Source of the DNA: Thermodesulfobacteriaceae bacterium
Lineage (GTDB): Bacteria; Desulfobacterota; Thermodesulfobacteria; Thermodesulfobacteriales; Thermodesulfobacteriaceae
DNA length: 64,000 bases
Assembly (NCBI GenBank): GCA_049414625.1
Contig: JBMSAU010000110.1
Span: 13,915-77,914 of the forward strand
Direction: 5' to 3'
Part shown: positions 3,030 to 63,830 of the stretch, one piece after another
Layout of the letters: every line of letters starts with the position of its first letter
Numbering within the stretch: position 1 is the stretch's first letter
The notes under the pieces: model-generated
What the model saw: the letters and a program-made list of their open reading frames with translations, nothing else
What the model was told of the DNA's origin: nothing
The model's database searches: none
Program-made: the position numbers and the translations under genes

Positions 3030-3074
3030 ATAACTAAGTTTAGATATGTTGTATTTTAAAGCTAAAATTTAACC

Positions 3075-4663: not shown

Positions 4664-4675
4664 AGCATCGTAATC

Positions 4676-5932: not shown

Positions 5933-5954
5933 CAACAATACTAAATTTTTTTGT

Positions 5955-12124: not shown

Positions 12125-12195
12125 TTCCTCGCAAATGTATTTCTTTTTTTTACAAACATGAGATAAACTTTTACAATTACACTAAATTTTTTATC

Positions 12196-19082: not shown

Positions 19083-19703
19083 TTATTGTTCAAGCATTGT
19101 TATGTCAATACAAATACCTAGATCTGCATACTCTAATGTTGAGTATAATGTGATATGATCTTGTATGAGATATTTGTCTTCATTAAACAAAACAATTAGT
19201 ATTCTCTTGTCTTTTATATTGTTGTTGTAATTTTTTTGAATGATTTTATCATCGGTTGATATATAGAAAGCTACAATTTTGTTTTCATATTCTAATATTC
19301 CTTTGTCAAATATTAGTTGATCGTTATTGATTAATACATCTAGTTTTAATGAGCAAGGGTAGTTATTGTTTACATTGCCAAGTATATCATTCAGTATATA
19401 TGTTAATTCATCAATGATTTTACATTTATTGTTTACATTATTTAATGTCTCAAACTTACAAGCAAACGATAGATTTTTGCTTACAACTACTTTGATATTT
19501 GCTCTGCAATAATCACTTATTAGATTTTTGTTTAATATAATCTTGTCATCATATAAAATACCTTCAATGTAATTTTTGTAAACTATTGGCTTTCCTTGTT
19601 CTGTTACAATAGTAAAATTTTTTACATCACTAGGTAAATCAATTAATGGATCTTTGATTTGAATAAATTGTGAGTTGCTTAATACATAGGCATATATATT
19701 CAT
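19083..19703 (-). CDS. hypothetical protein
   Basis: ORF track entry. Exact CTAAATT-N7-ATG lies upstream. Confidence 0.65.
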   Translation of the reverse strand: MNIYAYVLSNSQFIQIKDPLIDLPSDVKNFTIVTEQGKPIVYKNYIEGILYDDKIILNKNLISDYCRANIKVVVSKNLSFACKFETLNNVNNKCKIIDELTYILNDILGNVNNNYPCSLKLDVLINNDQLIFDKGILEYENKIVAFYISTDDKIIQKNYNNNIKDKRILIVLFNEDKYLIQDHITLYSTLEYADLGICIDITMLEQ

Positions 19704-19733
19704 ACAAAAAAATTTAGTTTAGTTGCTAAACTA

Positions 19734-21656
19734 TTAGGCTAGCACACGCTTCCAATCAATGTTTCTGCTAGCAGGAACATCAAACAATTGTTTCACCTTT
19801 TCCTTAAACTTTTCAACTAATAGTTCTTGTTTTTGTTGAATAGTTACTTTATCAGATTTTAGTTTTAGGTAGTATATATATGTCTCTCTTGTTTGCGAGA
19901 ATCTATATACTCTGGCTACTGCTTGATGCAGATCTACATCTCTAAAGGGTAAGTCTGCATACATAACTATCCTGCCTTCTGTTAAAGTAAAGCCAAATGA
20001 TAAAGATGAATATGTTGCTATCAGTATTGTTCCTGGTTGCTGCTTGAATATTTGAATTGATTTTTTACGTTCTTTCAAAGATTGTTCTCCTGTAACAATT
20101 ACAATATTCCTAATACCATGTTTCTCAAGAGTTTGTTTTATGGCTTCCAATGTGTATTTGTAGTTCGTGAATATTATTATTCTTTCCTGCTTGGAAACTA
20201 AATCTTTTATGAGCTTAATATTCTTTTCATATAACTCGATGACTAACTCTATTAATCTTTGTTTATATATACTACTTAATTCTTTAGTGAAACAAATCAA
20301 TTTACCCATAAATAGTTGCGACATTGCTTTGTTAAATTGTTCAGCTAAAGTATGTTCGTTTCTACTTTGCAGAAAATCATAGATTTGTTTGCGAGCGTAA
20401 ACTAAATCTCTTGTTAATTTAATTTGATTTTGTTTGGCGTTTTCCCTAATCATTTTTACATAATCACTAATTTGATTATCTGTATCAACTTGTTCTATTT
20501 TTGATAGCACATCAATTAGGTTTTGTTTATAGGTGTTGTAGTTTTGATTTACTTGTTGCAGACAACCTGATGACTGATCTCTGGCTTGCTCAATAATACT
20601 ATCAACTATGTATTTATCAATATTATCTACATTTGTTTCTATAACTATTTCATGTTTTGGTGGTAAGGATAGACTGCTACTAATTTGACTTCTTGTTACT
20701 CTGATCATACTTAAACTAAGTCTATGCTTTATCAAATCTATAGCATGTGTAGCATAAGCTGAATTATAGGCTTTAATGAAATAAGGGTAAGCATCCATAT
20801 CAAATAAAGGATCCAACAATAAAAATGCTCCTGATAGTTCAGCATATCTACCTTTGACTGGAGTTCCAGATAACAATAATACATCATTAATGTTGTTAGC
20901 AATGACAAATTTGTATAGAGATTGCATTGTCTGTGTATCAGCATATCTTATGACTTGAGCCTCATCTATGATAAGGAAAATTCTCTCAATATTATAGTTC
21001 CACGGAACATGTATTTTTGAAACATTATTAAAGTTTGTTATGATTGCAATATGATTATGGTTTGGTTGATCTAAAGGAAAAGCGCAAACCTGTTCTCTTG
21101 GTATGTTGGTTAATTTCTCAAATTCATCTAGCCAATTTAATATAAGTGTTTTGGGACAAACAACAATAACTTTTGTTCCATAGGCCAGTGATGTATATAG
21201 AGATGTTAGTGTTTTACCTGTGCCAACATCAAAGGCCAAATAATAACCTCTTAGTTTGAGGTTATCCTTATATTCACCGTAATGCTGAACAAATTTATTT
21301 TGATGTGGCATTAACTCAACTTTGAAGATTTGTTTCGCTTTATCTAAATGTTTTGGTGTATCTGGTTTATGATCAAACAATATATGATGCAATACAGTAT
21401 TCTCAATTAGTTCACGAGCAATTTTTAGTTGATTGTTGGATATTAGTGATAGAACAATCTCAACTGTAAAAAAGCGATGAAATTTGTAGTATGTTTTGCT
21501 TCCTACTCTTACATCATCGATAATCATTTTTAAAAAATTTTTGTCCTGTTCACTAACATAATCTAGCAAATTCAAATCCGTTAGATAGAAGTTTTTGCTT
21601 TCAATAATTTGCATAAACATAAATCGCTGAGATATTATCGTCAAAACAACAAACAT
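19734..21656 (-). CDS. SNF2-family DNA/RNA helicase
   Basis: Motif I DVGTGKT, motif II IIDEAQ, motif III LLLSGTP, motif VI QAVARVYRFSQT. An alternative ATG at 21612-21614 would remove the overlap with the upstream gene. Confidence 0.85.
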   Translation of the reverse strand: MFVVLTIISQRFMFMQIIESKNFYLTDLNLLDYVSEQDKNFLKMIIDDVRVGSKTYYKFHRFFTVEIVLSLISNNQLKIARELIENTVLHHILFDHKPDTPKHLDKAKQIFKVELMPHQNKFVQHYGEYKDNLKLRGYYLAFDVGTGKTLTSLYTSLAYGTKVIVVCPKTLILNWLDEFEKLTNIPREQVCAFPLDQPNHNHIAIITNFNNVSKIHVPWNYNIERIFLIIDEAQVIRYADTQTMQSLYKFVIANNINDVLLLSGTPVKGRYAELSGAFLLLDPLFDMDAYPYFIKAYNSAYATHAIDLIKHRLSLSMIRVTRSQISSSLSLPPKHEIVIETNVDNIDKYIVDSIIEQARDQSSGCLQQVNQNYNTYKQNLIDVLSKIEQVDTDNQISDYVKMIRENAKQNQIKLTRDLVYARKQIYDFLQSRNEHTLAEQFNKAMSQLFMGKLICFTKELSSIYKQRLIELVIELYEKNIKLIKDLVSKQERIIIFTNYKYTLEAIKQTLEKHGIRNIVIVTGEQSLKERKKSIQIFKQQPGTILIATYSSLSFGFTLTEGRIVMYADLPFRDVDLHQAVARVYRFSQTRETYIYYLKLKSDKVTIQQKQELLVEKFKEKVKQLFDVPASRNIDWKRVLA

Positions 21657-22148: not shown

Positions 22149-22619
22149 TCACATGAGTAGCGTTATGTAACTCAATATTGGAGCATTAAAATCTCTGACA
22201 TAACTATTTATCAAAGCAACATTCGCAAATAAGTTTGCAAGTATGACATTCTGTATTGGTATTGCTGATGAAGGTGATAATATTAACTTAGAATTTTTAT
22301 GTTTGTAATAAAATAGTGTTTTTATTTTGAAAGACAACTCATAAAATATAATATGATGCAAAATTTTGTTTATGTTTTTGCATAATATTATCCTTATATT
22401 ATCTAGCAAATCGACATTATGAAAATCAATATCTGTTGTGTAATTTGCTTGCAACAATAACATGTAAGTTATTATCTTTTCAAATGAATCAACACTATCT
22501 AACAAACTTAACATAACATTACCAAATTCTGATGATCTATAGTAAAGTCCGTAATACAAATAAGGATAATGTAGTTTTGAGAATAATACATCCTGTAACA
22601 AAGTCAGACTGGAATACAT
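22149..22619 (-). CDS. hypothetical protein
   Basis: ORF track entry. Exact CTAAATT-N7-ATG lies upstream. Confidence 0.6.
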   Translation of the reverse strand: MYSSLTLLQDVLFSKLHYPYLYYGLYYRSSEFGNVMLSLLDSVDSFEKIITYMLLLQANYTTDIDFHNVDLLDNIRIILCKNINKILHHIIFYELSFKIKTLFYYKHKNSKLILSPSSAIPIQNVILANLFANVALINSYVRDFNAPILSYITLLM

Positions 22620-22649
22620 GACAAAAAATTTAGTGTATTTGTAAAAAAA

Positions 22650-24251
22650 TTATTTGCCTGCGTATGCGAATGCAAATACTCTATTATTCATATTCTTAAC
22701 ATCTTGCTTAACTTTGTTTATATCCATAGAAGTAGATACGATGCGTCTTTTATGTAGCGTTTGTAGTATCTTTGCTCCAACCAATATTACACCTATACCA
22801 ATCAATCCTGCGATACCAACTTTGGCAAAAGTAGGTATATCGGAATATACTTGCTGCAATTTCTCTATTAGAGATTTACCAGTAGTTTGAACTTTTTCTG
22901 CTACATCACCAATCTTTTCAACAACTTCACCAGATTTTTGTTCTACATTAGCAGCAGTATCTTGAGCTTGTTTAGCAGCTTCCACTATTTTATCTGTATT
23001 CAACGCTGTAAGCAAGCCAATTATAAAACCAAATATACCAGCACCAACAACTGGAGTAGCAGCTTTCAATATACCAACTAGAGCTGGAATTATACCTGGA
23101 TTTGCTTTTCTCTGACTAACTTTTGCGTAAGCTTCTTTGCTTACAAATTTACTTACTAGCTTTTTGTAATTGTTTATTCCTTTCTTACCAGCTTGTTCGA
23201 AAATCGATACAGCTTCTTTTGCTACTTGTTTGACATCCAAAGTAGGATTTGTTACAATAAGAACACTAGCTATATCATCTAGCACAGCATATGTAAGTTT
23301 GTCATTAGGTATGCTTGCAAATTCTCTAGCTGCTACTCTTACAGCTCTCTTCTTCATAATAAGCATTATTATTCCGACAATGCTTGCTGTTGCAACTGCT
23401 GTTGTGATGGTTGGATAATGTGTTACAAAATCTTTTATAAACTTAACTATAGATTCAACCTGTGATCCTATTTTTGAAAGTATTTGTGATAACTCGGCTT
23501 TTAGTTTGCTGAAGAATGTAATTACCTCTTGGATGAATCTTTCAATAATATCACGAACCTTCATATAAACCTTCACAAATGGATCTTGTAGAATTCGTTT
23601 TTCCTCGGGAGTTAATACCTTATCTTTTATTTTTTCTTTAACTTCAGCTTTAAATTTTTCCCAACCTTGCTTAAAGTTCTCTGCTCCTTTCTTTTCCGAA
23701 ATGTCTTGTGAATCTTGTTCCATTTTTACACCATAAACTTTGGATATATAGGAAGATGCAATAGCTGCAAAGTATGATTCAACATTAATCATAGACTCAA
23801 CATTTGCTTCCTCACCCTGTTCAACGTTAATTACCTCTATAGTAAATACAGCATCTTGCTCACCATATTTTGATCTAACATGAGATTGATCAATCATTAT
23901 ATGCAAACTTTCACCTGGATTTGTAACTATGCTATTAGCCACTACTGCAGCACTATGTACAAATTCTTTAGGATTTTTTATGAATGGTATTGATGGATTT
24001 GCTACGTTAACATAAACATCTACTTCTGATACTGGCAGATCTACTTCACCTACAACCACATTATTAATTTTTACTGTTGCTGATTGTTTTGAAGCTTCAA
24101 ATACTATTGTCTCATCTAAATCATCAAATACATCAAAATCTTCTATTGCTGATTCTTTGGTTGTTTTACTATTGCTGACAATGGTTCTAATTACTCCTAA
24201 ATATTGTCCTATCAAAAGACTATAAGGTGAAAGATATTCAGCTGTCAACAT
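22650..24251 (-). CDS. membrane protein, paralogue of 37471-39111
   Basis: SATVKINNVVVGEVDLPVSEVDVYV aligns with NATVHIKNVAIGKTSIPVSDIRVEV in 37471-39111. Several hydrophobic helices lie in the C-terminal half. Confidence 0.65.
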   Translation of the reverse strand: MLTAEYLSPYSLLIGQYLGVIRTIVSNSKTTKESAIEDFDVFDDLDETIVFEASKQSATVKINNVVVGEVDLPVSEVDVYVNVANPSIPFIKNPKEFVHSAAVVANSIVTNPGESLHIMIDQSHVRSKYGEQDAVFTIEVINVEQGEEANVESMINVESYFAAIASSYISKVYGVKMEQDSQDISEKKGAENFKQGWEKFKAEVKEKIKDKVLTPEEKRILQDPFVKVYMKVRDIIERFIQEVITFFSKLKAELSQILSKIGSQVESIVKFIKDFVTHYPTITTAVATASIVGIIMLIMKKRAVRVAAREFASIPNDKLTYAVLDDIASVLIVTNPTLDVKQVAKEAVSIFEQAGKKGINNYKKLVSKFVSKEAYAKVSQRKANPGIIPALVGILKAATPVVGAGIFGFIIGLLTALNTDKIVEAAKQAQDTAANVEQKSGEVVEKIGDVAEKVQTTGKSLIEKLQQVYSDIPTFAKVGIAGLIGIGVILVGAKILQTLHKRRIVSTSMDINKVKQDVKNMNNRVFAFAYAGK

Positions 24252-24291: not shown

Positions 24292-24885
24292 TCATAGAAT
24301 CAATTCAACATAAGCTTTCTGTGTCTCATAAAGTCTAATTTTACTAAGTTGTATTTTTGCTGGAATTAATCCTATAGTTTTCATTCTATCAAATATTTTT
24401 ACAAACCAATTACATAAATTTTCTGCAGTCGGAACAAAATCAACGATTATGAAGCTCTGTTTATGTTCATTGGTAAATTCTTCATAATATCTATTGAATT
24501 TTGAAAATAGAGATTTTTCCTTATCTGTTGATACTAACTCTAGCTTACCATCCATCTCAGTAATGGTGTAATAAACTAAGCATTTAGACCAATCTAGTCT
24601 GTTATTTGTTACTCCGGTTATTGATTCAAACAATGGATCATTTATATCCAAGATGAATTTATGATCGATAAATCTTTGTATAAAATCGTTTAGATAGTTG
24701 AAAAATGTGAAATCTAGCACCATACCGCTTTCATCTAGATCAGATGTAATAAATAATTCCAACACATATTCATGTCCATGTAGAAATCTACATTTATTTG
24801 GTCCCAATGATTTTGGTAAATTTTGCGAATGTACCCTGTGACCTGCAACAAAATTAATTTTTTTGGTTATAAGCATTTCACTCAT
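24292..24885 (-). CDS. queD: 6-carboxy-5,6,7,8-tetrahydropterin synthase
   Basis: FVAGHRV...NKCRFLHGHEY...GMVLDF...IDHKFILD matches the QueD/PTPS pattern. The ATG at 24883-24885 is chosen by the exact CTAAATT-N7-ATG (the track extends to 24918). Confidence 0.85.
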   Translation of the reverse strand: MSEMLITKKINFVAGHRVHSQNLPKSLGPNKCRFLHGHEYVLELFITSDLDESGMVLDFTFFNYLNDFIQRFIDHKFILDINDPLFESITGVTNNRLDWSKCLVYYTITEMDGKLELVSTDKEKSLFSKFNRYYEEFTNEHKQSFIIVDFVPTAENLCNWFVKIFDRMKTIGLIPAKIQLSKIRLYETQKAYVELIL

Positions 24886-24895
24886 ACAAAAAAAT

Positions 24896-25606
24896 TTAGA
24901 TTGGTTGGTTTGTTTCAAGTAATGTTGATGCTACTTCTGTAAGCAATATATCTCTTTCTGCCATATAACTTACTAACTCAAATTCATCTTTAAATACTTC
25001 TTTTACAAAGAGTTTATCAATAGCTTTACCATAAACATAAACAGATGTTAACACATCTCTATATACATCAGCATCAATAGCATTTTCCATGCTAATCATT
25101 AATTCTATATTCTCTAGCTCATCATTAGTTAGTTCATTCTTGGCTTCATTCACTATTTGAGCAACCCGAAGTTTTATATCATCTTCCTTGATGTAACAAT
25201 ACTTTGGTAGCAGATTTTGTTCAATCTTTTCCTGAACAGTTACTATTATGTTATTGATCAATGTGCTTATATTTTCATACTCCTTAGCTAACGACACATC
25301 TTCAAAGAGCATATACTCCAAAGCCTTACGATAAAATTCTTTCACATCAGTAATATAAGTTTGATCCTCTTTAATCTCATTTTTGCTATTGTTTTCTGTT
25401 TGTTCTTGTTTTACTACCGATTTTATAACTTTTGCAAAGGATAATAGATTTTCATCTATTGTCGAACTCGCTTCATTTATAATTTTCATTTGAATTTCTA
25501 CTATCTCTTTATCTTTTTGTTCTATGGGTAACGGAACTATTGAGGATGATTCATCAACGTTTTCATCGCTGTTTAGAATAACCTTAAGTAAATCATCTCT
25601 AAGCAT
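24896..25606 (-). CDS. hypothetical acidic protein
   Basis: ORF track entry. Confidence 0.6.
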   Translation of the reverse strand: MLRDDLLKVILNSDENVDESSSIVPLPIEQKDKEIVEIQMKIINEASSTIDENLLSFAKVIKSVVKQEQTENNSKNEIKEDQTYITDVKEFYRKALEYMLFEDVSLAKEYENISTLINNIIVTVQEKIEQNLLPKYCYIKEDDIKLRVAQIVNEAKNELTNDELENIELMISMENAIDADVYRDVLTSVYVYGKAIDKLFVKEVFKDEFELVSYMAERDILLTEVASTLLETNQPI

Positions 25607-25641: not shown

Positions 25642-26331
25642 TCAAATCTGTTGCTGAGACAATTTCAATAACAAATAGTTTCTGTATTTTAGGAATTTAC
25701 TATCTACTCTTTTATTTTGAGGAACATTTTTTATATTTATCACAGAATTGATTTCTGTTGATATGGATACAGTGTAATCATATAATAGGTATATGATCAG
25801 TATAGCTATATGTCTATCTGTTTCTGTATTGTATTTGTTTGATGACAGTAGTTTAATGGTATGATAAGTGAAATATGCTAAAGGTAAAGAACCATAATAT
25901 ACCATTGGAGACAAATCTTTGTTAACAGTATAATTACTTTTGTATGTTATTAATGAAGGCTCCTTTAAAACAATTGGATATTGTTTACTCATACTAATAG
26001 CCATACCAACTCTATCAAAAGCTAATCCTAATACATCATAATTATCAAAGAAGTTTAATAATTGCTCAAAGGGAACAACATAATAATCATTTGTTTCTAA
26101 TTCATCATTTACACAGTGTAATAGGTAGAGAATAGATGTCAAAGCCAAATCAGATTTTGGATCTACAATTGCATGATTGATACCATTTATGGATTGTATG
26201 ATAAATTTTTTGTTTGTATTAATGCTAATTTGTTTTGGGAGCTTAAAGTTAACATTTTTATCATAAGGAAATCCAAAATATTTCAAAGCCATATCAATGT
26301 TAGCAAATAGATTTGGATTTCTGACTAGCAT
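25642..26331 (-). CDS. hypothetical protein
   Basis: ORF track entry. Exact CTAAATT-N7-ATG lies upstream. Confidence 0.65.
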   Translation of the reverse strand: MLVRNPNLFANIDMALKYFGFPYDKNVNFKLPKQISINTNKKFIIQSINGINHAIVDPKSDLALTSILYLLHCVNDELETNDYYVVPFEQLLNFFDNYDVLGLAFDRVGMAISMSKQYPIVLKEPSLITYKSNYTVNKDLSPMVYYGSLPLAYFTYHTIKLLSSNKYNTETDRHIAILIIYLLYDYTVSISTEINSVINIKNVPQNKRVDSKFLKYRNYLLLKLSQQQI

Positions 26332-26409
26332 ATCTAAAAATTTAGAGTGGATGTGGTGTTATTTATTGTCACTTTAAGATTGTTTTACAACGGATCTAAA
26401 TATATTAGT

Positions 26410-26833: not shown

Positions 26834-27634
26834 TTATTCTATTGCTTCTGCTAGCTCATCTAAATCTTTTAGCAAATGATTTACTTTTGATTTGTTAGCA
26901 TCATCAAGTAAACTCCACATATCAACATAAACTTGTGTATCATCCAACGCATAACTGAACAATATTAACATTAACAAAACATCATAGTTTTTATTCTGTT
27001 TAATTTTGTTTATGAATAACAATGTTTTACTAGCAATCATACGGAAAATCTTTCTTGATGGTAAGTTATAATCAAGAGTTAGTTTTAATGCTTCAGTTAA
27101 ATCTTCTATATTCAAATCAGAAGCATTTATGTATCTATATAGATGATACAATCTCTTATCGAGATTTAATAATTCTGACTCGTTTAATTTTAATCCCAGG
27201 TTGATCTCAATAATTTTATAGTGTTTACTCAATATATTAGATAAAACTAAATTTTCCAAACCAAATTGTCTTAATAATATGTTTAACTCATTGTTAAGTC
27301 GTTTTAAAATCGATGTTAAGACATTTATTGTATTTTGATTGGGATCATCCTTGAATGAATAATACATAAAACGGTATATATCAAGTATAATATCCTTTGA
27401 TGGATAAGAATTAATTTTTTGCTCCAGTGTGTCTATCATCTTTTCTGCGTAATCATATCTACCTATTTGCAGCATAGCAAGGAAGATTCTATTGAATAAG
27501 ATTATGTCAGGTATGTCATATTCATGTTTAAACACATCTTCAACAATATCTTCAAAATCAGTTTCATTAAGATTTGATGTTAGCTTATAGAAGGCTCTAA
27601 CCTCAGCTAAACTGTTTAGTAACATTTTATACAT
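26834..27634 (-). CDS. hypothetical protein
   Basis: The ATG at 27632-27634 is chosen by the exact CTAAATT-N7-ATG (the track extends to a TTG at 27664). Confidence 0.6.
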   Translation of the reverse strand: MYKMLLNSLAEVRAFYKLTSNLNETDFEDIVEDVFKHEYDIPDIILFNRIFLAMLQIGRYDYAEKMIDTLEQKINSYPSKDIILDIYRFMYYSFKDDPNQNTINVLTSILKRLNNELNILLRQFGLENLVLSNILSKHYKIIEINLGLKLNESELLNLDKRLYHLYRYINASDLNIEDLTEALKLTLDYNLPSRKIFRMIASKTLLFINKIKQNKNYDVLLMLILFSYALDDTQVYVDMWSLLDDANKSKVNHLLKDLDELAEAIE

Positions 27635-27737
27635 AATAAAAAATTTAGATATGTTAGAATCCAAGCATTGCTAAATAATTTGTAGTTGTTTTACTTAGTA
27701 TTGTTATATCATTTGCTTTTGATGTAACTTTTTTATA

Positions 27738-29066: not shown

Positions 29067-30623
29067 CTAAAGCATATCTTTGATTGATTTTACGAATTTA
29101 TTCACATATTCTTGTTCCAAGCCAACTACATAATTTTGAACAAAGTTTATTGCTTCATCGCTATCCTCAACAACAATCACAGACGCATTTTTTGCTTTAT
29201 TAACAACAAGCATAACAATATCCAAAGGTAAATGTTGTCTCAATTTGTCTGATAACTCATTTAAAAACTTTAGTGAATATTTTCCTTTTAGTGATAGACC
29301 TCTGCTTCCATGACTGAACACAGGACCAACTATTAGATTGTATAGCAACATACCAAAGATATGCGGTGCAATTGACTTTAATATTTTTTCAGCTTCACTT
29401 CTGTTTTTAGCCGCTTTCAATATGGATATTAAATCATTGCTAGTTAATGTTGTAGTTTTCCAAGCAACCATACCTGATATATCTCGTAATGTTGTAAGAT
29501 CAAGATTTGCATTATAATCTTTCAATATACTTATTAACTCCATTTTTATGATATGTTCCAACATAGTTAACTTAACCTCTCCTCTACATATACGTTTAAA
29601 CAGATTTATCAAATACTCATTCAAAAAGTCTGGATTTTGTCTATTCAAAAAGCCTGCTAGCTTATACTCATCAGTCTGAGAGTTATATAGGAAATATCTC
29701 TTCTTAACTCCTGTTCCAAATGCAGAGTCTCCAACAAATTCCAATTTAACTTTTGGATAATGTGCTAGTACTTTTTGTTTGTATGTGTTTGTAGCAAATC
29801 TATGAGCATAAGTGTAAACCAAGGGTAAAATACTATTATTCAAAACATCTTCATGCAAAATATCATATTTATCGTAAACAAAGAAGCTATCTGTATCGTT
29901 ATACATTATGAATTGAGTATTTGCATCAAACTTTTTACGAGCGCTAATAAAATCATTTATATTAACAGACAAATCATTAATATTTTTTGTTTGTATATAA
30001 CGATTAATCAAAGCTGATGTTGTTAGAGATATATATTGTCCTGTTATTGTTATGGCTTCAGCAATGTATATATTGTAGAATGGAAATGAATCTGTTCCGA
30101 AGACACCGTACATGCTATTCATGGCAAGTTTGGTTGCATTCTGTATGAGATCTGCAACTTGATCGCCTTGCTTTGCCTTTGCCTTATATATATCTCTCAT
30201 TTTAATCCATTCAACTAAAGTCTTTTCTAGTAAGATAGATAACTGATTACCATTTGTTAGTAATCCATTAGGAGTAACAATTATGTTTTTGTTTTGTATT
30301 AAGTCCAGTAAATCTTGTCCATTCATTTCATGATTGGTAAATCGTTTTGTTGTTATAAACCATTTGTATTTGACAATTTCATCATACAATCCAAACCAAA
30401 ACAATGTTCCAAATATCCTACCTGCAAACCTACCTTTTGCAAAATTATTCCAATAGGATAAATCAGCTTCATTATTTGTTTCAATACATAACAATTCTTG
30501 CAAGTATTTCTCTTCGTTTTTTATGTTTGATCCTGATACAAATCCATGAACATCTAGAATATTGTTTGCTACCATGAGATTTGGATATAGTGAATTTACG
30601 TCAAAAACTTTTATTGTTGGCAT
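29067..30623 (-). CDS. family-B DNA polymerase, polymerase (palm/fingers/thumb) domain (polymerase fragment 2)
   Basis: Motif A is VFDVNSLYPN, motif B is KLAMNSMYGVFG, motif C is YNDTDSFF. The ATG at 30621-30623 (MPTIKVFDV) has its own exact CTAAATT-N7-ATG; the track extends to 30656. Confidence 0.9.
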   Translation of the reverse strand: MPTIKVFDVNSLYPNLMVANNILDVHGFVSGSNIKNEEKYLQELLCIETNNEADLSYWNNFAKGRFAGRIFGTLFWFGLYDEIVKYKWFITTKRFTNHEMNGQDLLDLIQNKNIIVTPNGLLTNGNQLSILLEKTLVEWIKMRDIYKAKAKQGDQVADLIQNATKLAMNSMYGVFGTDSFPFYNIYIAEAITITGQYISLTTSALINRYIQTKNINDLSVNINDFISARKKFDANTQFIMYNDTDSFFVYDKYDILHEDVLNNSILPLVYTYAHRFATNTYKQKVLAHYPKVKLEFVGDSAFGTGVKKRYFLYNSQTDEYKLAGFLNRQNPDFLNEYLINLFKRICRGEVKLTMLEHIIKMELISILKDYNANLDLTTLRDISGMVAWKTTTLTSNDLISILKAAKNRSEAEKILKSIAPHIFGMLLYNLIVGPVFSHGSRGLSLKGKYSLKFLNELSDKLRQHLPLDIVMLVVNKAKNASVIVVEDSDEAINFVQNYVVGLEQEYVNKFVKSIKDML

Positions 30624-30675
30624 AAATGAAAATTTAGATTGGATGCAAAAAAACAAGCCGCCTAAATTTTTTTGT

Positions 30676-31674
30676 ATGCTAGACGTTAGGAATATCTTTA
30701 ACTACTATGTATATAAGCCTATTTATTACAAACGAAATCACATATTAATACGGTGTCCTTTCTGTGGAGACAGTGTTAAAAATGTTATGCATGCTCATTT
30801 GTATATTGAACCAGATTTGATGGTATTTTGGTGTGCAAGATGTTATGAAGGTGGTTCGCTAGCCTATCTGCTAACCAAAATCAGAGACAGATTTTCAATT
30901 GATGTAAATCCGATAATAAACCAATTACGTAATGTTATAGTTAGTAATACTAGCTTACAAAAATCAAAACAAATAAACTTAGATATAACTTACATTGAGA
31001 TGCAAAAACTAAAACAAAAATTAAGTCAAGAATCTATTGCTAGGTATAGAAATGAGCTAGAGTATTACTTCATCAAAAAGCAAATCAATATCAGTGAACA
31101 TGTATTACATCAATTACCGATTGCTATGTATGATGTAGTGTACGATTATTTGCTACCACATAAAGATAGATTGGATAATTCACTAGTCGTATTTACAATC
31201 GGTAGTAGAGTAATTTACAGATATGATTATTTGAGTTTGTTACATAACTTCAAAACAGAAAGAAGGTTTATGAATCTCTATCTAGCAATAGGTAAAAGCT
31301 ATCAAGCTCTACAATATAGTTTGTTTACATTGCTACCATACAACTTTGATAGAAAGTTTTATCAATCATACAATCTAAGCAGAAAAAATTTACTACTTGT
31401 TTCTGAAGGATTAACTGATATGATATTGTATGCAGAACATTTACTAACAAGTGTAGATACACCAATAACTTGCTTAGTGTTAAATGGTAAATGGTATGAA
31501 ATTATAAAAGACTTTGAACCTTTGTTTGACAATATTACAGTAATTGTTGATAATGATGCTGCAACTAAAGCATACATAGCTGGTCTCAAGATAAACAGTA
31601 AACTAAGTTTTGTTATACCAGTTACAGGTAATGATCTTAGAGAGAGTAAAAAATATCTTGAAGTAGAAATTTAA
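30676..31674 (+). CDS. DnaG-like primase (zinc ribbon plus TOPRIM)
   Basis: CPFCGDS...CARCYEGG forms the zinc ribbon. LLVSEGLTDMI and VIVDNDAAT are TOPRIM E..D and DxD elements. The ATG at 30676 is chosen by the exact CTAAATT-N7-ATG (the track starts at 30562). Confidence 0.7.
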   Translation: MLDVRNIFNYYVYKPIYYKRNHILIRCPFCGDSVKNVMHAHLYIEPDLMVFWCARCYEGGSLAYLLTKIRDRFSIDVNPIINQLRNVIVSNTSLQKSKQINLDITYIEMQKLKQKLSQESIARYRNELEYYFIKKQINISEHVLHQLPIAMYDVVYDYLLPHKDRLDNSLVVFTIGSRVIYRYDYLSLLHNFKTERRFMNLYLAIGKSYQALQYSLFTLLPYNFDRKFYQSYNLSRKNLLLVSEGLTDMILYAEHLLTSVDTPITCLVLNGKWYEIIKDFEPLFDNITVIVDNDAATKAYIAGLKINSKLSFVIPVTGNDLRESKKYLEVEI

Positions 31675-35334: not shown

Positions 35335-36366
35335 CTAGGCTAGGTTTGTGGATAATAACACTACTAACAAATCTCTGTATAACGGATGACTCTCATCAAG
35401 ATATGTAGATAGGTTATTTGATAGTTCATTTGCAAAAGTTGTTAATCTATCATCTTCTATGTCAAATGAAGTTGTGTAGTATATGTATGCTCTTGGATTA
35501 GTAGCAAACAGTGTAGCTAGAAATTCAATTAACTGATTTGAGACATTACCAAATGTTATAGTTATTCCTGATGGCGTATTTGTTAGCAATGCTTCCAAGG
35601 ATTGTAAGTATTGATCTCTTGTAATGGTAGGCTGTATCGTTTCAGGTAGAATAGCAATTCCTACTAGTAAATCCTTAACTCCGCTTATAGCGTTATCGCA
35701 ATACGGAGATCGTATTAGGTTAGTGTAAACATGATCATAAAATCCTATTATATCCAATAGAATTCTACAAGAATCACCTGTTAAACACTCAGACCTGTAA
35801 ATTTGTGAACTAAAACAAATTGGTGTTTCTACATTATCATTTATACATATGAATGTATCTGTATGTATGGTACAGGATTGTTCGTAAAATTGTTCCTCGT
35901 ATTCCAAAAATCTGTTATCAATCTCATGTAACATCAAGTATAAAATTTTGTAAATAGTTGCCATCTGTTTATTGTGTTGTTCAATATAATCTAGCAAATC
36001 ATAAACATATTTATCTCTTTGTGAAACAAAACAAATTGATGTTTCTACATTATCATTTATACATATGAATGTATCTGTATGTATGGTATAGGATTGTTTT
36101 AGAAAATCGTAAAATTGTTTTTTGTATTCCAAAAATCTGTTATTAATCTCATAGACCGAATCACAAATTGTACTCATACTGTTTGTAGAATTCAAGCAAA
36201 TATTATTGGTAAAACCTAAATGTAAAAGGAAAAGTTCGTCTTTTTGATTGTTATATAGTATGTTCTCAACTAAAACAGAACAATCAATATTATCTGAGTC
36301 TTCATTACTACAACTTGAACAATATATATTTCTAATCAAGTCAACTATATAAAAATATTGCTTCAT
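35335..36366 (-). CDS. hypothetical protein containing an internal ~125-nt duplication
   Basis: ORF track entry. NRFLEY(K/E)(K/E)QFY...TIHTDTFICINDNVET(S/P)ICF occurs twice. Confidence 0.6.
   Translation of the reverse strand: MKQYFYIVDLIRNIYCSSCSNEDSDNIDCSVLVENILYNNQKDELFLLHLGFTNNICLNSTNSMSTICDSVYEINNRFLEYKKQFYDFLKQSYTIHTDTFICINDNVETSICFVSQRDKYVYDLLDYIEQHNKQMATIYKILYLMLHEIDNRFLEYEEQFYEQSCTIHTDTFICINDNVETPICFSSQIYRSECLTGDSCRILLDIIGFYDHVYTNLIRSPYCDNAISGVKDLLVGIAILPETIQPTITRDQYLQSLEALLTNTPSGITITFGNVSNQLIEFLATLFATNPRAYIYYTTSFDIEDDRLTTFANELSNNLSTYLDESHPLYRDLLVVLLSTNLA
35812..36152. repeat. two near-identical ~125-nt direct copies (35812-35936 and 36027-36152) inside one CDS
   Basis: Aligned by eye. 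The copies differ by a few transitions and one 9-nt indel. Confidence 0.85.
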
Positions 36367-36399
36367 GTTGGTAGTTGCTTACTGATTAGCACAAAATTT

Positions 36400-37212
36400 A
36401 TGCTTGCACAGCAAAAGCCAATATCATCTAAGCTAAGAAACAAGCTATTGGTATTGATAAATAGATTAGGAGTAAGAAGTTTGAATGATCTCATACTAAA
36501 TCAAAAAATAAACAAGAAATTTTACAAGTATGTATTTGACATACATGTTAATGCAAACGATATTAGTGAAACTCTTGTTAACAATCTATACACAAACATA
36601 AAGCAATTTTATGCAAAACATGGATTAAATATAACTTTAAATAGTTCAGATATTGCAACTCTGATAGGACTTAGGGCTGGAACCTATGCAACCTTAAAGC
36701 TTATTAAACAAAAAGTTTTGTTTGATGAAAATTATGCTCAGATAAAACCTAGTTCTGATGTGACAATAGATAGTTTTATAGAATCTGCTATTACAACAAA
36801 GGATTACAATATATCTTACTTCTTACTGTATTTGGATTATACACCTGATGATTTATTAAATTTGTTGCTTGATGGTATTAACATACTTACAAAAGCAGAC
36901 AAGTATGATAGCGATTACAATTTTGCTGCTGTAACAATGATTTTGTATATATCCATGATTGTTAAAACTATTCGTGATAGTTATAATAGATTGGTTAGAT
37001 CGTCTCCACTATATGGAACAATATTGTATTTATCCTTCATGATAAGATATTATGTTATATTATTGGATTTGAGAAACAATTTAAAAAATATAATGACTAA
37101 AATTAGTGACACTGAAATAGAGGGAACAACATTAAAGAAATATAAACAAATAAAACAGGATTATCTCAGATTTCTAATACAACCCACAAAAATTTATCCA
37201 TCAAGCATGTAA
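36400..37212 (+). CDS. hypothetical protein
   Basis: The track starts at 36358, overlapping the divergent gene start. The ATG at 36400 follows CACAAAATTT. Confidence 0.5.
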   Translation: MLAQQKPISSKLRNKLLVLINRLGVRSLNDLILNQKINKKFYKYVFDIHVNANDISETLVNNLYTNIKQFYAKHGLNITLNSSDIATLIGLRAGTYATLKLIKQKVLFDENYAQIKPSSDVTIDSFIESAITTKDYNISYFLLYLDYTPDDLLNLLLDGINILTKADKYDSDYNFAAVTMILYISMIVKTIRDSYNRLVRSSPLYGTILYLSFMIRYYVILLDLRNNLKNIMTKISDTEIEGTTLKKYKQIKQDYLRFLIQPTKIYPSSM

Positions 37213-49937: not shown

Positions 49938-51674
49938 TTACCTTTGAACGATAAGTCTACCTACTACATTAGGATAGATTACAGATACTCCGAATCTATG
50001 AACAGCAGTCATTGCTTGACCAAGAGTATTTGCAGGATAAGGTATCATATGGGTTGCATAAGGTGCATATATTGCAGTAGAGAAGAATTCTTGTTTGGAT
50101 TTGAGTACAAGTAAGTTCCTACCAACAGGAAGTATAGGTGTAGGCAATACCTTTATCCATTCTTCAGATCCATCTTTGCTTCTGGTGTATATCTTGAATG
50201 GGTCTGCTTTCGTTACAGGGTCGGATACCCACTTACCTATGTTAACAAGTAGTGAAGCATCTTCAACATTCATCACAAGTATGGGTTCTACTTCGGGAAC
50301 AGGTGTATTCCTGAGTATCTTACCAAGCAGGTTAGATATTGCATAAGGGAAATGAGTCATAACGTACATGCCTGGTCCCCAACTGTAAGCAGCAAGAGCA
50401 GCAGCAGTCATATCTACAGATTCTTCTATGTTATGAACAAGTGATGCATTATACAAGTTCATTAGAAGGAATGCATCAGTGTTAAGTGCAATTATAGCAG
50501 ATAGTATGCTACTTACTTCGCCGAGTATGTCGAGATTGAAGAGAACTTGAGCATCAAAAGCCATTTCGGGAGATACAAGTATTGTGCTTTCAAGCCTGTT
50601 TTCAGCAAGAGTTTGTCTTGCAAGTTCAAGTCTGAGCTTCCTAGCAGGATCTCTCGCTTCATAGGCTACTCTTGCATATATCTCTATACCTTGAACTTCA
50701 GGAGCAGTTCCACCAGTTACTATAACAGTTATAGTGAAATCACCAGATTTGAAGTCTACTCTACCAGTTACATTAACAGTGTAGGTATTGGCACTAATAG
50801 TTACAGTCCCAGCTCCGGTTATAGCACCAGATGATTCAATATTGGAAGATACATTTATTGTTCCAGATGTCGCACCATCAGTTATACGAACAGCTATTAC
50901 TCTAAAATCAGGTGTTACTCTAAGCTTATTGTCAGGAGCAACAGTCGCAGGAGGCAACAAGTTAGCATCACGTAGAATGTTATACACATTACCTCTTATT
51001 ATCTCTTCTGCAGAAGGAGTTGTAGCGGGAACAAATACACCCTGCCCAGGAGCTGTTCCGTAATAGCCAAGAGAATCTCCACTGAGAAGTCTACCAGTTG
51101 TCATGTCTACTGATAGATAGGATGAGAATGGATAAGGATTTGTAGAGTTAGTTAGTTCTTCATAAAACCTGAAGAAGTAAACATAGGCACCTGGAGCAGA
51201 CATATTCCTGACATCATATACTTGCGTTGCAACAAGTCTTGGATACATAAACCTTATCAGTGGTGCCAAATACATAAAGTATGGTATCACATTAGCAGAT
51301 GTATTTTCTGTAGCTATAGCCCTAAGACTATTTTCATACAAAACTTTAATGGCTTTGGATAGTGAATATACTTCTGCCTCTGATAGATTACCTTGTTCTG
51401 CAACTATATCGGTTACTATTGCATTGGATATTAAATCAATTACAGTCTTATCACCTTGTAAAGCTCTTTTTGCCAGTTCTGATATTTTATCTACAAATTC
51501 TGATGGATTTTTAGATGCATTAACCTTAGTTATATCCGAATAAAATTCTTTTACTATTTTCTTGGCATCTTCAACATTCTTATTTGCCATTTCCATTGCT
51601 AGACTGTAAATTCTTTTCGTAGATATAATTGAGTCAGATGGGTAAAATCTTGATAGTCTTACGTCTTTATCCAT
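49938..51674 (-). CDS. probable major capsid protein (T4 gp23 / HK97-fold-like)
   Basis: A/G/T/V-rich composition and higher G+C than neighbours, as in highly expressed genes. Spine-helix-like segment ARKLRLELARQTLAENRLES...EMAFDAQVLFNLDILGEVSSIL. A beta-rich insertion is also present. The call rests on family resemblance only. Confidence 0.55.
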   Translation of the reverse strand: MDKDVRLSRFYPSDSIISTKRIYSLAMEMANKNVEDAKKIVKEFYSDITKVNASKNPSEFVDKISELAKRALQGDKTVIDLISNAIVTDIVAEQGNLSEAEVYSLSKAIKVLYENSLRAIATENTSANVIPYFMYLAPLIRFMYPRLVATQVYDVRNMSAPGAYVYFFRFYEELTNSTNPYPFSSYLSVDMTTGRLLSGDSLGYYGTAPGQGVFVPATTPSAEEIIRGNVYNILRDANLLPPATVAPDNKLRVTPDFRVIAVRITDGATSGTINVSSNIESSGAITGAGTVTISANTYTVNVTGRVDFKSGDFTITVIVTGGTAPEVQGIEIYARVAYEARDPARKLRLELARQTLAENRLESTILVSPEMAFDAQVLFNLDILGEVSSILSAIIALNTDAFLLMNLYNASLVHNIEESVDMTAAALAAYSWGPGMYVMTHFPYAISNLLGKILRNTPVPEVEPILVMNVEDASLLVNIGKWVSDPVTKADPFKIYTRSKDGSEEWIKVLPTPILPVGRNLLVLKSKQEFFSTAIYAPYATHMIPYPANTLGQAMTAVHRFGVSVIYPNVVGRLIVQR

Positions 51675-51816
51675 AACGTTCTTCTGCTAAAAAGTTGTGA
51701 GTAAACAACTTTAAATATTAATGCAAAAAATTTTTTACAAGTATGCTAAAGATAATACTGTAAGAAAACAAACATTTTATTATTGGATGCTATCATTTAA
51801 CACACCTCCGCAAGAA

Positions 51817-51885
51817 GTCTCCATCTTCCGTAAGGTGGAGATTAATTGCGAAAGACTTGACAAGGTTCTTATTTTGGACTATATT
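51817..51885 (+). promoter_or_regulatory. hairpin plus sigma70-type promoter: -35 TTGACA, 17-nt spacer, -10 TATATT
   Basis: Hairpin CTCCATCTT-CCGT-AAGGTGGAG at 51819-51840. -35 at 51857-51862 and -10 at 51880-51885. It is homologous to the queE promoter module at 720-800 on the minus strand. Confidence 0.55.
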
Positions 51886-51889
51886 AATA

Positions 51890-51995
51890 AATGTCCCGAT
51901 AATCAAGGGACCTAGGGCTGGAGCGGCCCGAAGTTAAGCCTGTGGAGAGGCGAAAGCCTCTATGAAGCAGGAAGCTCCACCTATTGGAGCGGCTC
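51890..51995 (+). ncRNA. candidate small structured RNA transcribed from the 51857-51885 promoter
   Basis: A 5' hairpin GTCCC-N9-GGGAC is followed by a G+C-rich element of about 85 nt. Within it, GGGCTGGAGC pairs with GCTCCACCT, CCTG pairs with CAGG, and AGAGGC-GAAA-GCCTCT forms a GNRA-capped stem. No credible ORF is present. Confidence 0.35.
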
Positions 51996-53316
51996 ACTCG
52001 ATATTGTTCTCAAATTGCCAAACAAGATAGTTAACTGATCCAACTTTCTTTGATTCTGGTGTTACAATAGGGTCCAAGTATCCCAACATATCTGTTACAA
52101 GTCTTATTTTGTGACTTAATCTCTTCATTGCAAATTTATGAGCATATGTAGCTTTTAACTGTAACATAACTTCTGATATAGGATTATGTATTTTATCCTC
52201 TACATATTCAACTTGCATTATCTTATACAAAATGGATAGAGATGTTGAATGCTTTCTGGGCAATTTTCGTGTTCTAATTCTCTCATACACCAAGTGCATT
52301 AGTTGTCTAACCAATGGATGCAATAAGAATGTTTTGAATCTTACTGTTTTGCTTTTTAGTGAGCTATACAAACCACAATTTTTTATATAATTGTAGAAGT
52401 CATTGCTTGGAACAAATGTAAATAGAAAGTAATAGGGATCTTTAAACTCCTGTCTAACCAATGGATCAAATATAGCACTTATCTCTCCATATAATAATGT
52501 CATTATCTCAAAAGAATGTTTACCCATAAGTCTTTCTAATAACCTACTTCCACCGTAGTCCTTGAATGATTTTGCAAATCTTCTCCTATAATTGCTTTCA
52601 TATGTTACATCTACAATTAATTGTTTATTGACTGATGTATCTGTATACACAATAGATGTTTCCGTTTCTTGTATTGTTATATATTTAACTTTCTTTCCTT
52701 TTGTTACAGTAGTTACTATGTTTGATTGATTATTATCTAGCTCTTGCATATCAACTTGAAAGCCAGTTTGTTGTAAAACCATATACAACAAATCTAGCAA
52801 GGATAAATTACTTTCCATTAAACTTTCATCATTCTTGAGCAAATACAATATCAAAAAGTTCAATATAGGTAATGTTTTATGTTTTGATTCATATAAGATT
52901 GGTTTTGTTTCATCTAAAATATTTTTAAACACTACTTTCCTATACAGATTAGATAATTTTGCATCCATACTCTCTGTTCCAAATCTATCCAAGAACTTAT
53001 CTGCGATTGAGTAAATAAATACATATCGTTGTCCATTAACTATTATGTAGTTTCCAATAAACCTAGGAATGAATGTTTTATAATTACAAATTGCTCCATC
53101 CTTTTTGTCCTTCAAACTATATTTGATAGTATAAACAGATACTAATCCGTCTGTTGACATGAGATCTTCTTCCTCAATTTGTAAATCAATTAATTCAGCA
53201 TCAATCAGATCACAAAACCAAATTATGGTATTTTTAACATCTTCTGTAATATTGTTTAATACTTGTTTGCGATATGAAATGGGTTTACTGTCTATGTTTA
53301 GGTTTATGAAATACAT
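51994..53316 (-). CDS. multisubunit RNA polymerase beta, N-terminal fragment
   Basis: FIGNYIIVNGQRYVFIYS aligns with FIINGxERVIVSQ. The C-terminal LDPIVTPESKKVGSVNYL aligns with ICPIETPEGPNIGLINSL. The ATG at 53314-53316 is chosen by the exact CTAAATT-N7-ATG (the track extends to 53400). Confidence 0.75.
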   Translation of the reverse strand: MYFINLNIDSKPISYRKQVLNNITEDVKNTIIWFCDLIDAELIDLQIEEEDLMSTDGLVSVYTIKYSLKDKKDGAICNYKTFIPRFIGNYIIVNGQRYVFIYSIADKFLDRFGTESMDAKLSNLYRKVVFKNILDETKPILYESKHKTLPILNFLILYLLKNDESLMESNLSLLDLLYMVLQQTGFQVDMQELDNNQSNIVTTVTKGKKVKYITIQETETSIVYTDTSVNKQLIVDVTYESNYRRRFAKSFKDYGGSRLLERLMGKHSFEIMTLLYGEISAIFDPLVRQEFKDPYYFLFTFVPSNDFYNYIKNCGLYSSLKSKTVRFKTFLLHPLVRQLMHLVYERIRTRKLPRKHSTSLSILYKIMQVEYVEDKIHNPISEVMLQLKATYAHKFAMKRLSHKIRLVTDMLGYLDPIVTPESKKVGSVNYLVWQFENNIE

Positions 53317-53365
53317 GATAGTAAATTTAGTATGGGTGCTCAAAAAAAATGTTTTATTTTTTTTG

Positions 53366-53992
53366 TTATAGTAATATATCATCTGAATCTGATGATACAT
53401 TTACAGTCACATCAGATAGATCCAAATCCAATTCATCTTCTATTGTATCTGATTTATCAATTTCGGATATTTTCTTTTTAGATGGTGCTTCTGTTGTATA
53501 TTTATTGTATAGTTCCCAGAATCTTGTAGCATCTCTTTCAATTCTTTTTAATGTGACACCTTTTCTCATTAGTTCTTCAATTGCATTAATAACCCTATCA
53601 ATCTCCTCTTTGACATTTTCCAATACTTCATCATTTATCTCATTGTCCATTTTTGTTCCAATTTCTCTTAGATATAATGCATGATTTTCTTTTATCACTG
53701 CTATGTATGGAGATGTTTTCAATCCTGTAGCTGATGTCAATCTGTTTGAATAAATCAATGCTACTGTATATCCATTCGCATCATACAATTTGGTTCCTAG
53801 TAGCAAATTCTCTCTTTTCTTAATCACAATTACGTGATCTTTGGATATTGGCTCAATTATTTTGAATTTTTTATTTGCTGGAAATCCGACTAAATTGCTA
53901 CCTACTAACGTACAATAATATATTTGTTCATCATATTTAATTGGTTTGAATACACTTGATAATTTTTCTATGGAGATTACTCTGACCTTCAT
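53366..53992 (-). CDS. hypothetical protein
   Basis: The ATG at 53990-53992 is chosen by the exact CTAAATT-N7-ATG (the track extends to a TTG at 54010). Confidence 0.6.
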   Translation of the reverse strand: MKVRVISIEKLSSVFKPIKYDEQIYYCTLVGSNLVGFPANKKFKIIEPISKDHVIVIKKRENLLLGTKLYDANGYTVALIYSNRLTSATGLKTSPYIAVIKENHALYLREIGTKMDNEINDEVLENVKEEIDRVINAIEELMRKGVTLKRIERDATRFWELYNKYTTEAPSKKKISEIDKSDTIEDELDLDLSDVTVNVSSDSDDILL

Positions 53993-55180: not shown

Positions 55181-55235
55181 AATAGCTAAATTTAGCTGCG
55201 TTGTGTATTACTAATACATAAACAGTTGTGAACTA

Positions 55236-55257
55236 CTCCATCTTCTACAAGATGGAG
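55236..55257 (+). promoter_or_regulatory. perfect hairpin CTCCATCTT-CTAC-AAGATGGAG upstream of the tail sheath gene
   Basis: It shares the 10-mer CTCCATCTTC with the hairpin at 51819-51840. Confidence 0.4.
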
Positions 55258-55294
55258 ACTTCTCACCTAAATTTTTAAAAGCACATAATGAAAT

Positions 55295-63112: not shown

Positions 63113-63556
63113 ATGAGGAACTTTGCCATACCTAGAAACCTATTGAACATATCCTTTAATGTTGTTTATGCAGATAAATTCATTATTTGTAGCATGGAAC
63201 CCAGTACTAGTGATGAAGATAGTCTTCTGATTGCAGGATTAGATCACACAGAAATTGTTGCTAATAATAAACGAGTAAAATTTTCCAACTTAGAAAAAGG
63301 TTTAAGATTGTATACAGGTAGTTATTACTATGTTGTTAAGGATATCGTACATGTAAAACAAAATAATCTAGTTCCATTTTACATTGCAAAACCATTTATG
63401 GAAATCGGAGAATTTAGAATCTTTGGTCCGTTTAGAGTTAATTTAGAAATAACAGAAAACGAAACTGAGGAATATGAAATAGCTAATCTAAAAATAAGTT
63501 TTGAAAAGAAATTTAATTTGTTAGAGGTATTAGATACTAACTTTGCGGCAAATTAG
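63113..63556 (+). CDS. hypothetical protein
   Basis: ORF track entry. Exact CTAAATT-N7-ATG lies upstream. Confidence 0.65.
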   Translation: MRNFAIPRNLLNISFNVVYADKFIICSMEPSTSDEDSLLIAGLDHTEIVANNKRVKFSNLEKGLRLYTGSYYYVVKDIVHVKQNNLVPFYIAKPFMEIGEFRIFGPFRVNLEITENETEEYEIANLKISFEKKFNLLEVLDTNFAAN

Positions 63557-63578
63557 CAAATTGTCTAAATTTTTTACA

Positions 63579-63830
63579 ATGAGGAAAGTCAAAGTTCCAA
63601 AAAAAGAAATTTCCAATTTAGATCAATTAATACTCGATTTCATGAATCTACCGTCAATTGACAGAATGAGAAGAATTATGTATTGCATGTATAATGTAAA
63701 TACATATGATGAAGATACAATAAAAATTGATCCTTATTTGTTACCGATGTTTAGAAAATTAAAATCTATGTATCCAACGGTTAGGGATGAAGTCTTATTA
63801 AGAGCAACGATGCTAAATTTATCAAAATGA
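63579..63830 (+). CDS. hypothetical small protein
   Basis: The ATG at 63579 is chosen by the exact CTAAATT-N7-ATG (the track starts at a TTG at 63543). Confidence 0.55.
   Translation: MRKVKVPKKEISNLDQLILDFMNLPSIDRMRRIMYCMYNVNTYDEDTIKIDPYLLPMFRKLKSMYPTVRDEVLLRATMLNLSK

Follow-up and report, generated by a model that had tools for sequence, protein, structure and literature searches.

Palindrome-associated transposable elements (PATEs) often encode omega-RNAs that need TnpB action in trans (Meers et al. 2023, PMC10055086). The guide of IS200/IS605 elements is the sequence directly 3' of the right end (RE) (PMC8612924, PMC10055086), and the transposon-encoded motif (TEM) TTCAC has been reported for ISGst elements (PMC10055086). 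The RAGATH-18 motif is the core of the guide RNA (reRNA) of IS607 TnpB nucleases (Ren et al. 2024, PMC11061315) and was reported only with IS607 (PMC11061315). In this study, positions 51886–51995 of a 64-kb window (the whole stretch of DNA analysed, 64,000 nucleotides of contig JBMSAU010000110.1) were compared with these systems. A first-pass annotation had taken this stretch for an orphan structured RNA gene under a consensus promoter. Judged from sequence comparison, it is almost certainly the right half of a 197-bp non-autonomous miniature transposon of IS200/IS605 (IS605 group), of the PATE or miniature inverted-repeat transposable element (MITE) kind, which reaches left to 51801, beyond the annotated coordinates. 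The structured RNA is real, but it is half of a mobile element rather than a gene of its own. It belongs among selfish elements of a known kind and does not found a new RNA class; a possible new phage RNA thus gives way to a transposon-derived guide-RNA cassette.

The boundaries were determined with viral contig L049 as the comparison allele. Its homologue of the adjoining 468-aa protein is 98% identical at the amino acid level. L049 reads ...gctatcatttaG/tcgatattattctc... (/tcgatatt...) with nothing in between, and precisely 51801–51997 is absent. At the same site the window reads ...gctatcatttaA, followed by the insert CACACCTCC ... GGAGCGGCTCAC and then tcgatattgttctc.... The occupied and empty alleles therefore define an insert of 197 bp at 51801–51997, without target duplication. 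By this comparison the insertion is recent, since it is missing from the 98% identical relative. The parts of the locus are as follows.

51796–51800, + strand: target or transposon-adjacent motif (TAM) TTTAA, directly 5' of the insertion; it flanks 30 of the 33 complete metagenome copies described below, and also viral and genome copies.
51801–51997, + strand: entire miniature IS200/IS605 (IS605-group) element with no protein gene, delimited by the empty site, end-to-end alignment with 10 other miniature copies and 25 distinct insertion sites.
51818–51841, + strand: left-end (LE) subterminal hairpin TCTCCATC-TTCCGTAA-GGTGGAGA, the predicted TnpA binding site, inside the conserved LE GCAAGAAGTC...AATTGC (51810–51849).
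51857–51885, + strand: internal sigma-70-type promoter, TTGACA (51857–51862), 17-nt spacer and TATATT (51880–51885), with 11 of 12 consensus matches.
51893–51911, + strand: 5' hairpin S0, GTCCC-GATAATCAA-GGGAC, at the predicted 5' end of the transcript.
51915–51929, + strand: omega-RNA stem A, GGGCTG-GAG-CGGCCC (helix 1; 5 of 6 pairs changed on both sides, 90.6% of cells paired in alignment A5).
51939–51971, + strand: kink-turn (k-turn) or internal-loop hairpin CCUGU-GGA-GAGGC-GAAA-GCCUC-UAUGAA-GCAGG, a RAGATH-18-like core (RF03064, 32.6 bits, E = 2e-4).
51974–51990, + strand: RE hairpin GCTCCA-CCTAT-TGGAGC, shortened here (helix 4, covarying across the family).
51991–51997, + strand: right terminus GGCTCAC, which with the C at 51990 aligns to the family consensus tail G-TAGTTCAC.
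51994–51996, − strand: TGA stop of the 468-aa gene, furnished by the final bases of the element (window ...WQFENNIE-stop, empty site ...WQFENNID-stop).
51998–52017, + strand: predicted omega-RNA guide TCGATATTGTTCTCAAATTG, antisense to the 3' end of the 468-aa gene, placed from position only with an assumed guide length of 16–20 nt.

The LE pattern occurred once in the window, with 0 occurrences expected by chance, and was found at 28 genome loci. Subterminal imperfect palindromes are present at both ends and terminal inverted repeats are absent, as in IS200/IS605. In consensus copies, the hairpins of the two ends are similar. All miniature copies have the −35 and −10 boxes at conserved positions, and in Thermus phage YS40_Isch this promoter drives tnpA of the full-length element. 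The promoter belongs to the transposon itself. The stem of S0 varies while its loop is kept: CGCAAC-GATAATCAA-GTTGCG in L014 and GCTTAGC-GATAGCCAA-GCTAAGC in L029 and L057. In every lineage having such a hairpin, it adjoins TAGGG. Right after CAC, the window sequence departs from its relatives. The TEM is CTCAC in the window copy versus TTCAC in the family.

The layout was compared with described elements. Like the PATE-like ISGst elements of Geobacillus stearothermophilus, the window element has LE and RE hairpins, no open reading frame (ORF) and an omega-RNA with a guide in the 3' flank; TnpA and TnpB are needed in trans, the TAM is T-rich and 5 nt long, and the family TEM is TTCAC. The likeness is one of layout and motifs. 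The TAM is TTTAA, unlike the TTTAT of ISGst2, and unlike ISGst the window element rides a phage of a hot-spring Aquificaceae-type host. In ISDra2 too, the reRNA scaffold lies at the tnpB 3' end plus RE, the flank acts as guide and the TAM is the TnpA target site (PMC8612924). Unlike the window element, ISDra2 encodes its own TnpA and TnpB, and both its sequence and its TAM differ. The TAM of the window element reads TTTAA. That of ISDra2 is TTGAT.

Further matches were found in phages. A sensitive blastn search of phage genomes with 51905–51982 matched two loci, YS40_Isch and Rhodothermus phage RM378. The YS40_Isch element (annotated as ISCsa5-like; MK257744, 12.2–13.9 kb) has the same LE (GCAAGAA.TCTCCATC...AATTGC), promoter position, TTTAA flank and family end ...GTTCAC. 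Its omega-RNA core is 82% identical to that of the window element over 68 nt, and the match covers the last ~75 nt of tnpB. YS40_Isch encodes an IS200-like TnpA and a 392-aa TnpB, whereas the window element has lost both. The RM378 element (NC_004735, ~25.39–25.74 kb; L002, ~2750–3105) is unannotated and lies in the intergenic gap between Rm378p028 and p029. It has LE, promoter, omega-RNA, RE and the TTTAA flank, and shares GCAAGAAGTCTCCATC...GGTGGAGAT.AATTGC followed by the TTGACA promoter with the left part of the window element. Unlike the window element, it is ~350 bp long and keeps ~53 N-terminal codons of tnpB, followed by an internal deletion.

The same LE precedes tnpA and tnpB not only in YS40_Isch but also in Thermovorax (L074) and Caldanaerobacter (L060), and tnpB alone in Hydrogenobacter sp. 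RSW1 (L073) and in an Aquificaceae metagenome-assembled genome (MAG). The LE is thus shared with TnpA-coding elements, the end homology by which a derivative of IS200/IS605 is recognised, and this TnpA is an IS200-like Y1 (HUH) enzyme. Scans for the LE pattern also found protein-less derivatives of 185–228 bp in viral contigs, Hydrogenobacter sp. RSW1, an Aquificaceae MAG and other hot-spring genomes. Their common plan is TTTAA/C..GCAAGAAGTC-LE hairpin-AATTGC, −35/−10 promoter, omega-RNA scaffold, RE hairpin and GTAGTTCAC/. The exact architecture of the window element, including ATGTCCnGATAATCAAGGGAC, was found in three copies (L051, L052 and Hydrogenobacter L078).

In hot-spring metagenomes, the window-type core was found at 53 loci with 33 complete copies, which have 25 distinct flank pairs and a modal length of 204 nt; 28 of the 33 carry the tail GTAGTTCAC. 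The family is mobile. Copies without an ORF occur at many unrelated sites, as expected for PATEs and MITEs, and insertion is at a fixed target without duplication, with the caveat of TTTAG at the empty site of L049. Independent deletion derivatives all keep the promoter directly 5' of the scaffold. The derivatives thus seem to retain guide-RNA expression, which fits selection on the RNA in elements without their own nuclease.

Viral contigs L050, L054 and L055 have the same LE, TTTAA/CCTAAATTCAGCAAGAAGTCTCC...AATTGC, followed by different A+T-rich cargo. No RE was found within reach of the LE in these three contigs. The left end of the family may carry another passenger in these contigs.

The first-pass annotation had proposed, among other roles, a phage small RNA (sRNA), a mimic of a host RNA or a strong bidirectional terminator. 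The general description held. The G+C content of 51900–51999 is 0.57, compared with 0.20–0.35 nearby, and no credible ORF was found inside the 197-bp element. The + strand RNA folds at −44.4 kcal/mol (z = −3.3), a value equalled by 0 of 200 shuffles, and the − strand fold is weaker (z = −1.9). A free-standing sRNA, a mimic of signal recognition particle (SRP) RNA domain IV or a terminator would fit the G+C-rich hairpins and the GNRA loop, the string GAAGCAG, which also occurs in SRP RNA, and the minus strand, where the complement of S0 is followed by AUUUAUUA. However, no SRP or other sRNA family was detected even at E <= 10 (51650–52100), and the motif fits the RAGATH-18 k-turn hairpin instead. 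There is no T-run, 0 terminator-like sites were found on either strand in 51500–52300, and the empty-site relative copes without the hairpins. A block that is a mobile insertion missing from a near-identical phage contradicts these roles, and a locus-specific regulator would not recur at at least 25 unrelated sites. All three are extremely unlikely.

The association of the RNA with TnpB was investigated with the core pattern GCCTGTGGAG-N-ATGAARCAGGAAGC, which was found at 46 viral loci. At most of them, as in YS40_Isch, a full-length TnpB ORF ends over the core motif. The motif is therefore the omega-RNA and right end of canonical IS605-group elements, and in full-length elements it has the location of an omega-RNA, over the tnpB 3' end and RE, on the tnpB strand and up to the transposon boundary. 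The family consensus from 5' to 3' is the S0 hairpin, UAGGGCnGGAAnnGCCC (stem A), GAAnUnAAC, GCCUGUGGAG, a variable hairpin, NAUGAAGCAGGAAGC, the RE hairpin and GUAGUUCAC, after which the flanks diverge.

Covariation in relatives, a check proposed with the first-pass annotation, was assessed in 32 family sequences, with the window copy left out and slid structures as controls. The named structure had 89.7% of cells paired, compared with 34–51% for the controls. The covariation score was 0.511 (controls 0.08–0.14, maximum 0.143), and 141 cells were changed on both sides (controls 21–44). Three of the four helices covary: helices 1, 3 and 4 have 5, 4 and 5 pairs with changes on both sides. The outer stem of the k-turn hairpin does not vary. 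Of the 5 pairs in its covarying inner stem, 4 show changes on both sides, and most family members fold the distal hairpin although sequences differ. When the sequences were folded one by one, most members likewise formed both the variable and the RE hairpin, from unrelated sequences. Covariance model R1, built without the window copy, gave that copy 73.8 bits (E = 8e-18). The RNA structure is conserved by covariation. A long-range pairing of GGGCTGGAGC with GCTCCACCT is feasible on paper, but family covariation favours the local stem A hairpin. Inspection by eye gave no convincing covariation for a pseudoknot joining the linker GAAnUnAA to the GUAGUUCAC tail, or the S0 loop to the RE loop.

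An Rfam search, also proposed earlier, gave no match at the gathering threshold in the whole window. The permissive scan gave one meaningful match, RAGATH-18 at 51939–51973 (32.6 bits, E = 2e-4). Like RAGATH-18 (RF03064), the window RNA has CCUGUGGAG ... GAUGAAGCAGGAA as an internal-loop or k-turn hairpin in the middle of a TnpB guide-RNA scaffold. Unlike RAGATH-18, it has a 5-bp GNRA hairpin in place of the long apical stem, with 37 model positions replaced by 1 nt. Membership of RAGATH-18 was rejected: 32.6 bits is below the gathering score of 44.9, and the TnpA that accompanies the relatives is of the Y1 type rather than the IS607 serine recombinase. A RAGATH-18-like k-turn hairpin thus also occurs outside IS607 elements.

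The mechanism was modelled on the established IS200/IS605 and TnpB scheme (PMC8612924, PMC10055086). The element would have inserted 3' of TTTAA at the very end of the 468-aa phage gene, keeping what it needs in cis: LE and RE hairpins for a Y1 TnpA, its own promoter and an omega-RNA scaffold for TnpB. The promoter at 51857–51885 would give an RNA of ~105 nt from near 51892, containing S0, stem A, the k-turn hairpin and the RE hairpin. The transcript would continue into flanking phage sequence as the guide (predicted 51998–52017). TnpA and cognate TnpB would be supplied in trans by full-length copies, most likely in the Aquificaceae host. TnpA would recognise the LE and RE hairpins, move the element as single-stranded DNA and insert it 3' of TTTAA. 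RNA-loaded TnpB would cut TTTAA-plus-guide sites without the element, and recombination would restore or spread the insertion. We infer transcription, TnpB loading and present-day activity; that this in-trans model operates, now or recently, for this particular copy is somewhat probable. The occupied and empty alleles would offer a natural, ready-made target and guide for in-trans TnpB homing in phage.

Several observations weigh against an active copy. The window copy is 81–87% identical to other copies, and the differences concentrate in the RE, where the hairpin has lost 7 nt and substitutions affect positions that do not vary among 19 other unique copies. Its tail reads GCGGCTCAC in place of GTAGTTCAC, and the RE hairpin is the weakest of 41 (−1.9 kcal/mol). 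Such degeneration could abolish TnpA cleavage, TnpB binding or both, and the copy may already be immobile. The sufficiency of the ~105-nt scaffold for this TnpB clade is presumed in the model and may not hold. Neither TnpA nor cognate TnpB was found in the 64-kb window by tblastn or by the family hidden Markov model at E <= 10, so function hangs on partners from elsewhere. The target itself adds a further point. The L049 empty site (5395–5412) reads TTTAG-TCGATATTATTC..., with TTTAG where the window has TTTAA, and this one-base difference at the LE junction keeps a scarless insertion from being demonstrable.

A dead relic of the same identity, whose transcript would be functionless or would at the very most interfere in antisense with the 468-aa gene at its 3' end, would account for the RE decay and the missing partners. 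It would also fit one LE change at the invariant position 51843, and a phage lineage that accumulates decaying remnants of the same IS (55228–55274, and a longer remnant in the relative). By contrast, the recent insertion, the intact promoter, S0, stem A and k-turn hairpin, and the 73.8-bit score against the family model speak against a relic. The distal stem of the k-turn hairpin also has an apparent compensatory T-A to C-G change relative to most copies by alignment inspection; comparison with the 19 unique copies flags only its 5' side (51951, C versus T in 17 of 19). The relic is a possible explanation, though a doubtful one.

The remnants were observed at a second site. Positions 55228–55274 (− strand), between a 385-aa ORF and the tail-sheath gene, form a 47-nt solo hairpin of the same IS family, TTTAA/AAATTTAGGTGAGAAGTCTCCATCTTGTAGAAGATGGAGTAGTTCAC. 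Its left flank is that of the LE and its tail that of the RE, as would be expected from recombination between the two end hairpins. At the homologous site L049 has a longer remnant of ~105 nt, in which some of the k-turn hairpin survives.

Only the window copy has the 9-mer TGGAGCGGC twice; other copies have TGGAGTAGT at the RE. The first occurrence of the 9-mer is at 51919–51927, as annotated, and the second at 51985–51993, not at 51983–51991. Three substitutions in the RE reproduce the stem A sequence, as templated repair or a template switch between the two TGGAG sites could do.

In the model with TnpA and TnpB supplied in trans, a phage-borne omega-RNA without TnpB could further act as an RNA-guided gene drive between phages, using cognate TnpB supplied by the host. 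This extension is unlikely. If true, co-infecting sibling phages without the insertion (TTTAA plus TCGATATTGTTC...) would be cleaved and so converted or excluded, comparable to the action of free-standing homing endonucleases in T4-like phages. TTTAG in L049 reflects a synonymous substitution, GAT to GAC, in the final codon of the 468-aa gene, and L049 also has one mismatch at guide position 9. The two changes would weaken TnpA targeting and TnpB cleavage, and under a gene drive they would be escape mutations. The local divergence between the window and L049 appears to be ~2–3% by eye in any case. The stop codon of the empty allele is TAA, overlapping the TAM.

The 522-aa TnpB-related gene of the window (3075–4643) had been proposed as the partner of the RNA, with the RNA as a trans-acting guide or decoy. 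The gene lies within its own insertion at ~3055–4664 (+ strand), which is missing from two relatives (L084, 98%; L085, 94%) whose empty site reads gttgtatAAgcatcg. The protein contains Pfam SSO2105_N and has 2049 homologues at E <= 0.001; among the matches listed, it is 85–90% identical to more than 100 Thermocrinis and hot-spring proteins. This similarity to Thermocrinis suggests that the host belongs to the Aquificaceae. Terminal inverted repeats (GAGGCTGTTCTAAA...TTTAGAACAGCCTC) are present in the T. ruber copy; in the window copy the left repeat is missing. No relative of the 522-aa protein was found in the viral-contig scan.

A guide or decoy for this protein would fit strings shared by the two regions, both of which are insertions missing from relatives. 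GTCCCGATAA occurs at 4634 and 51893 (0.02 expected) and GGCTGGAGSGGC at 4622 and 51916 (0.00 expected), beside the 522-aa stop codon, and AAGAAGTCTC is also common to both. However, the order of the shared strings differs between the two regions, local alignment of the regions reaches a best score of 20 (shuffle mean 17.7, maximum 26), and the match is poorer for T. ruber, whose copy reads GGTTGGAGGGGC and GTCCCGATGA. The protein is from a different family: the profile of TnpBs accompanying this omega-RNA did not detect it even at E <= 10. The ORF ends in ~270 nt that fold at z = −6.4 with an architecture unlike that of the element at 51.9 kb and look RNA-like rather than protein-coding; the gene has a differently built structured 3' region of its own. 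Neither Rfam (nothing credible) nor model R1 (no match) recognised this region. The shared 10–12-mers are fixed features of each element family, and a link is unsupported. The RNA does belong to a TnpB guide-RNA family, but its pairing with this protein, which comes from an unrelated IS, is very unlikely. In phages of hot-spring Aquificaceae-type hosts, elements of the IS200/IS605 type arrive repeatedly from the host, and three separate traces of them lie in this window.

The genes flanking the miniature transposon were compared with protein families. The annotated stretch sits between the minus-strand ORFs 49938–51674 (578 aa) and 51994–53400 (468 aa). Both neighbouring genes are on the minus strand, so the 468-aa gene is convergent with the promoter, as annotated. 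The 578-aa ORF is a gp23-like major head protein (Pfam Gp23, E = 4.6e-8; phrog_138), which bears out its capsid label, and no tblastn match to it was found in the phage collection. The 468-aa ORF had no match in Pfam, PHROG or PDB, and its family was not assigned; the label "beta-N" could not be verified. Searches for exact matches to the 468-aa and 522-aa proteins gave no record. ARAGORN found no tRNA or tmRNA. The strings listed for the RNA are all present: the hairpin GTCCCGATAATCAAGGGAC at 51893–51911, GGGCTGGAGCGGCCC at 51915–51929, CCTG...CAGG around AGAGGC-GAAA-GCCTCT at 51939–51971 and CTCCA-CCTAT-TGGAG at 51975–51989.

Two further features of the window were observed. Two dispersed direct repeats of 81 nt (95% identity) and 46 nt (91%) lie at 35802–36152 with spacings of 216 and 225 nt, which suggests a local duplication of ~220 nt across the junction of a 343-aa ORF (35335–36366, − strand) and a 284-aa ORF (36358–37212, + strand). 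The motif CTAAATTTTTTTGTATG (complement CATACAAAAAAATTTAG) recurs directly on gene starts on both strands, at 5926–5958, 12169–12200, 19698–19736, 22614–22652, 24880–24918, 26329–26360, 27632–27656, 30621–30679 and 63550–63582, and is probably a phage promoter or translation-start signal.

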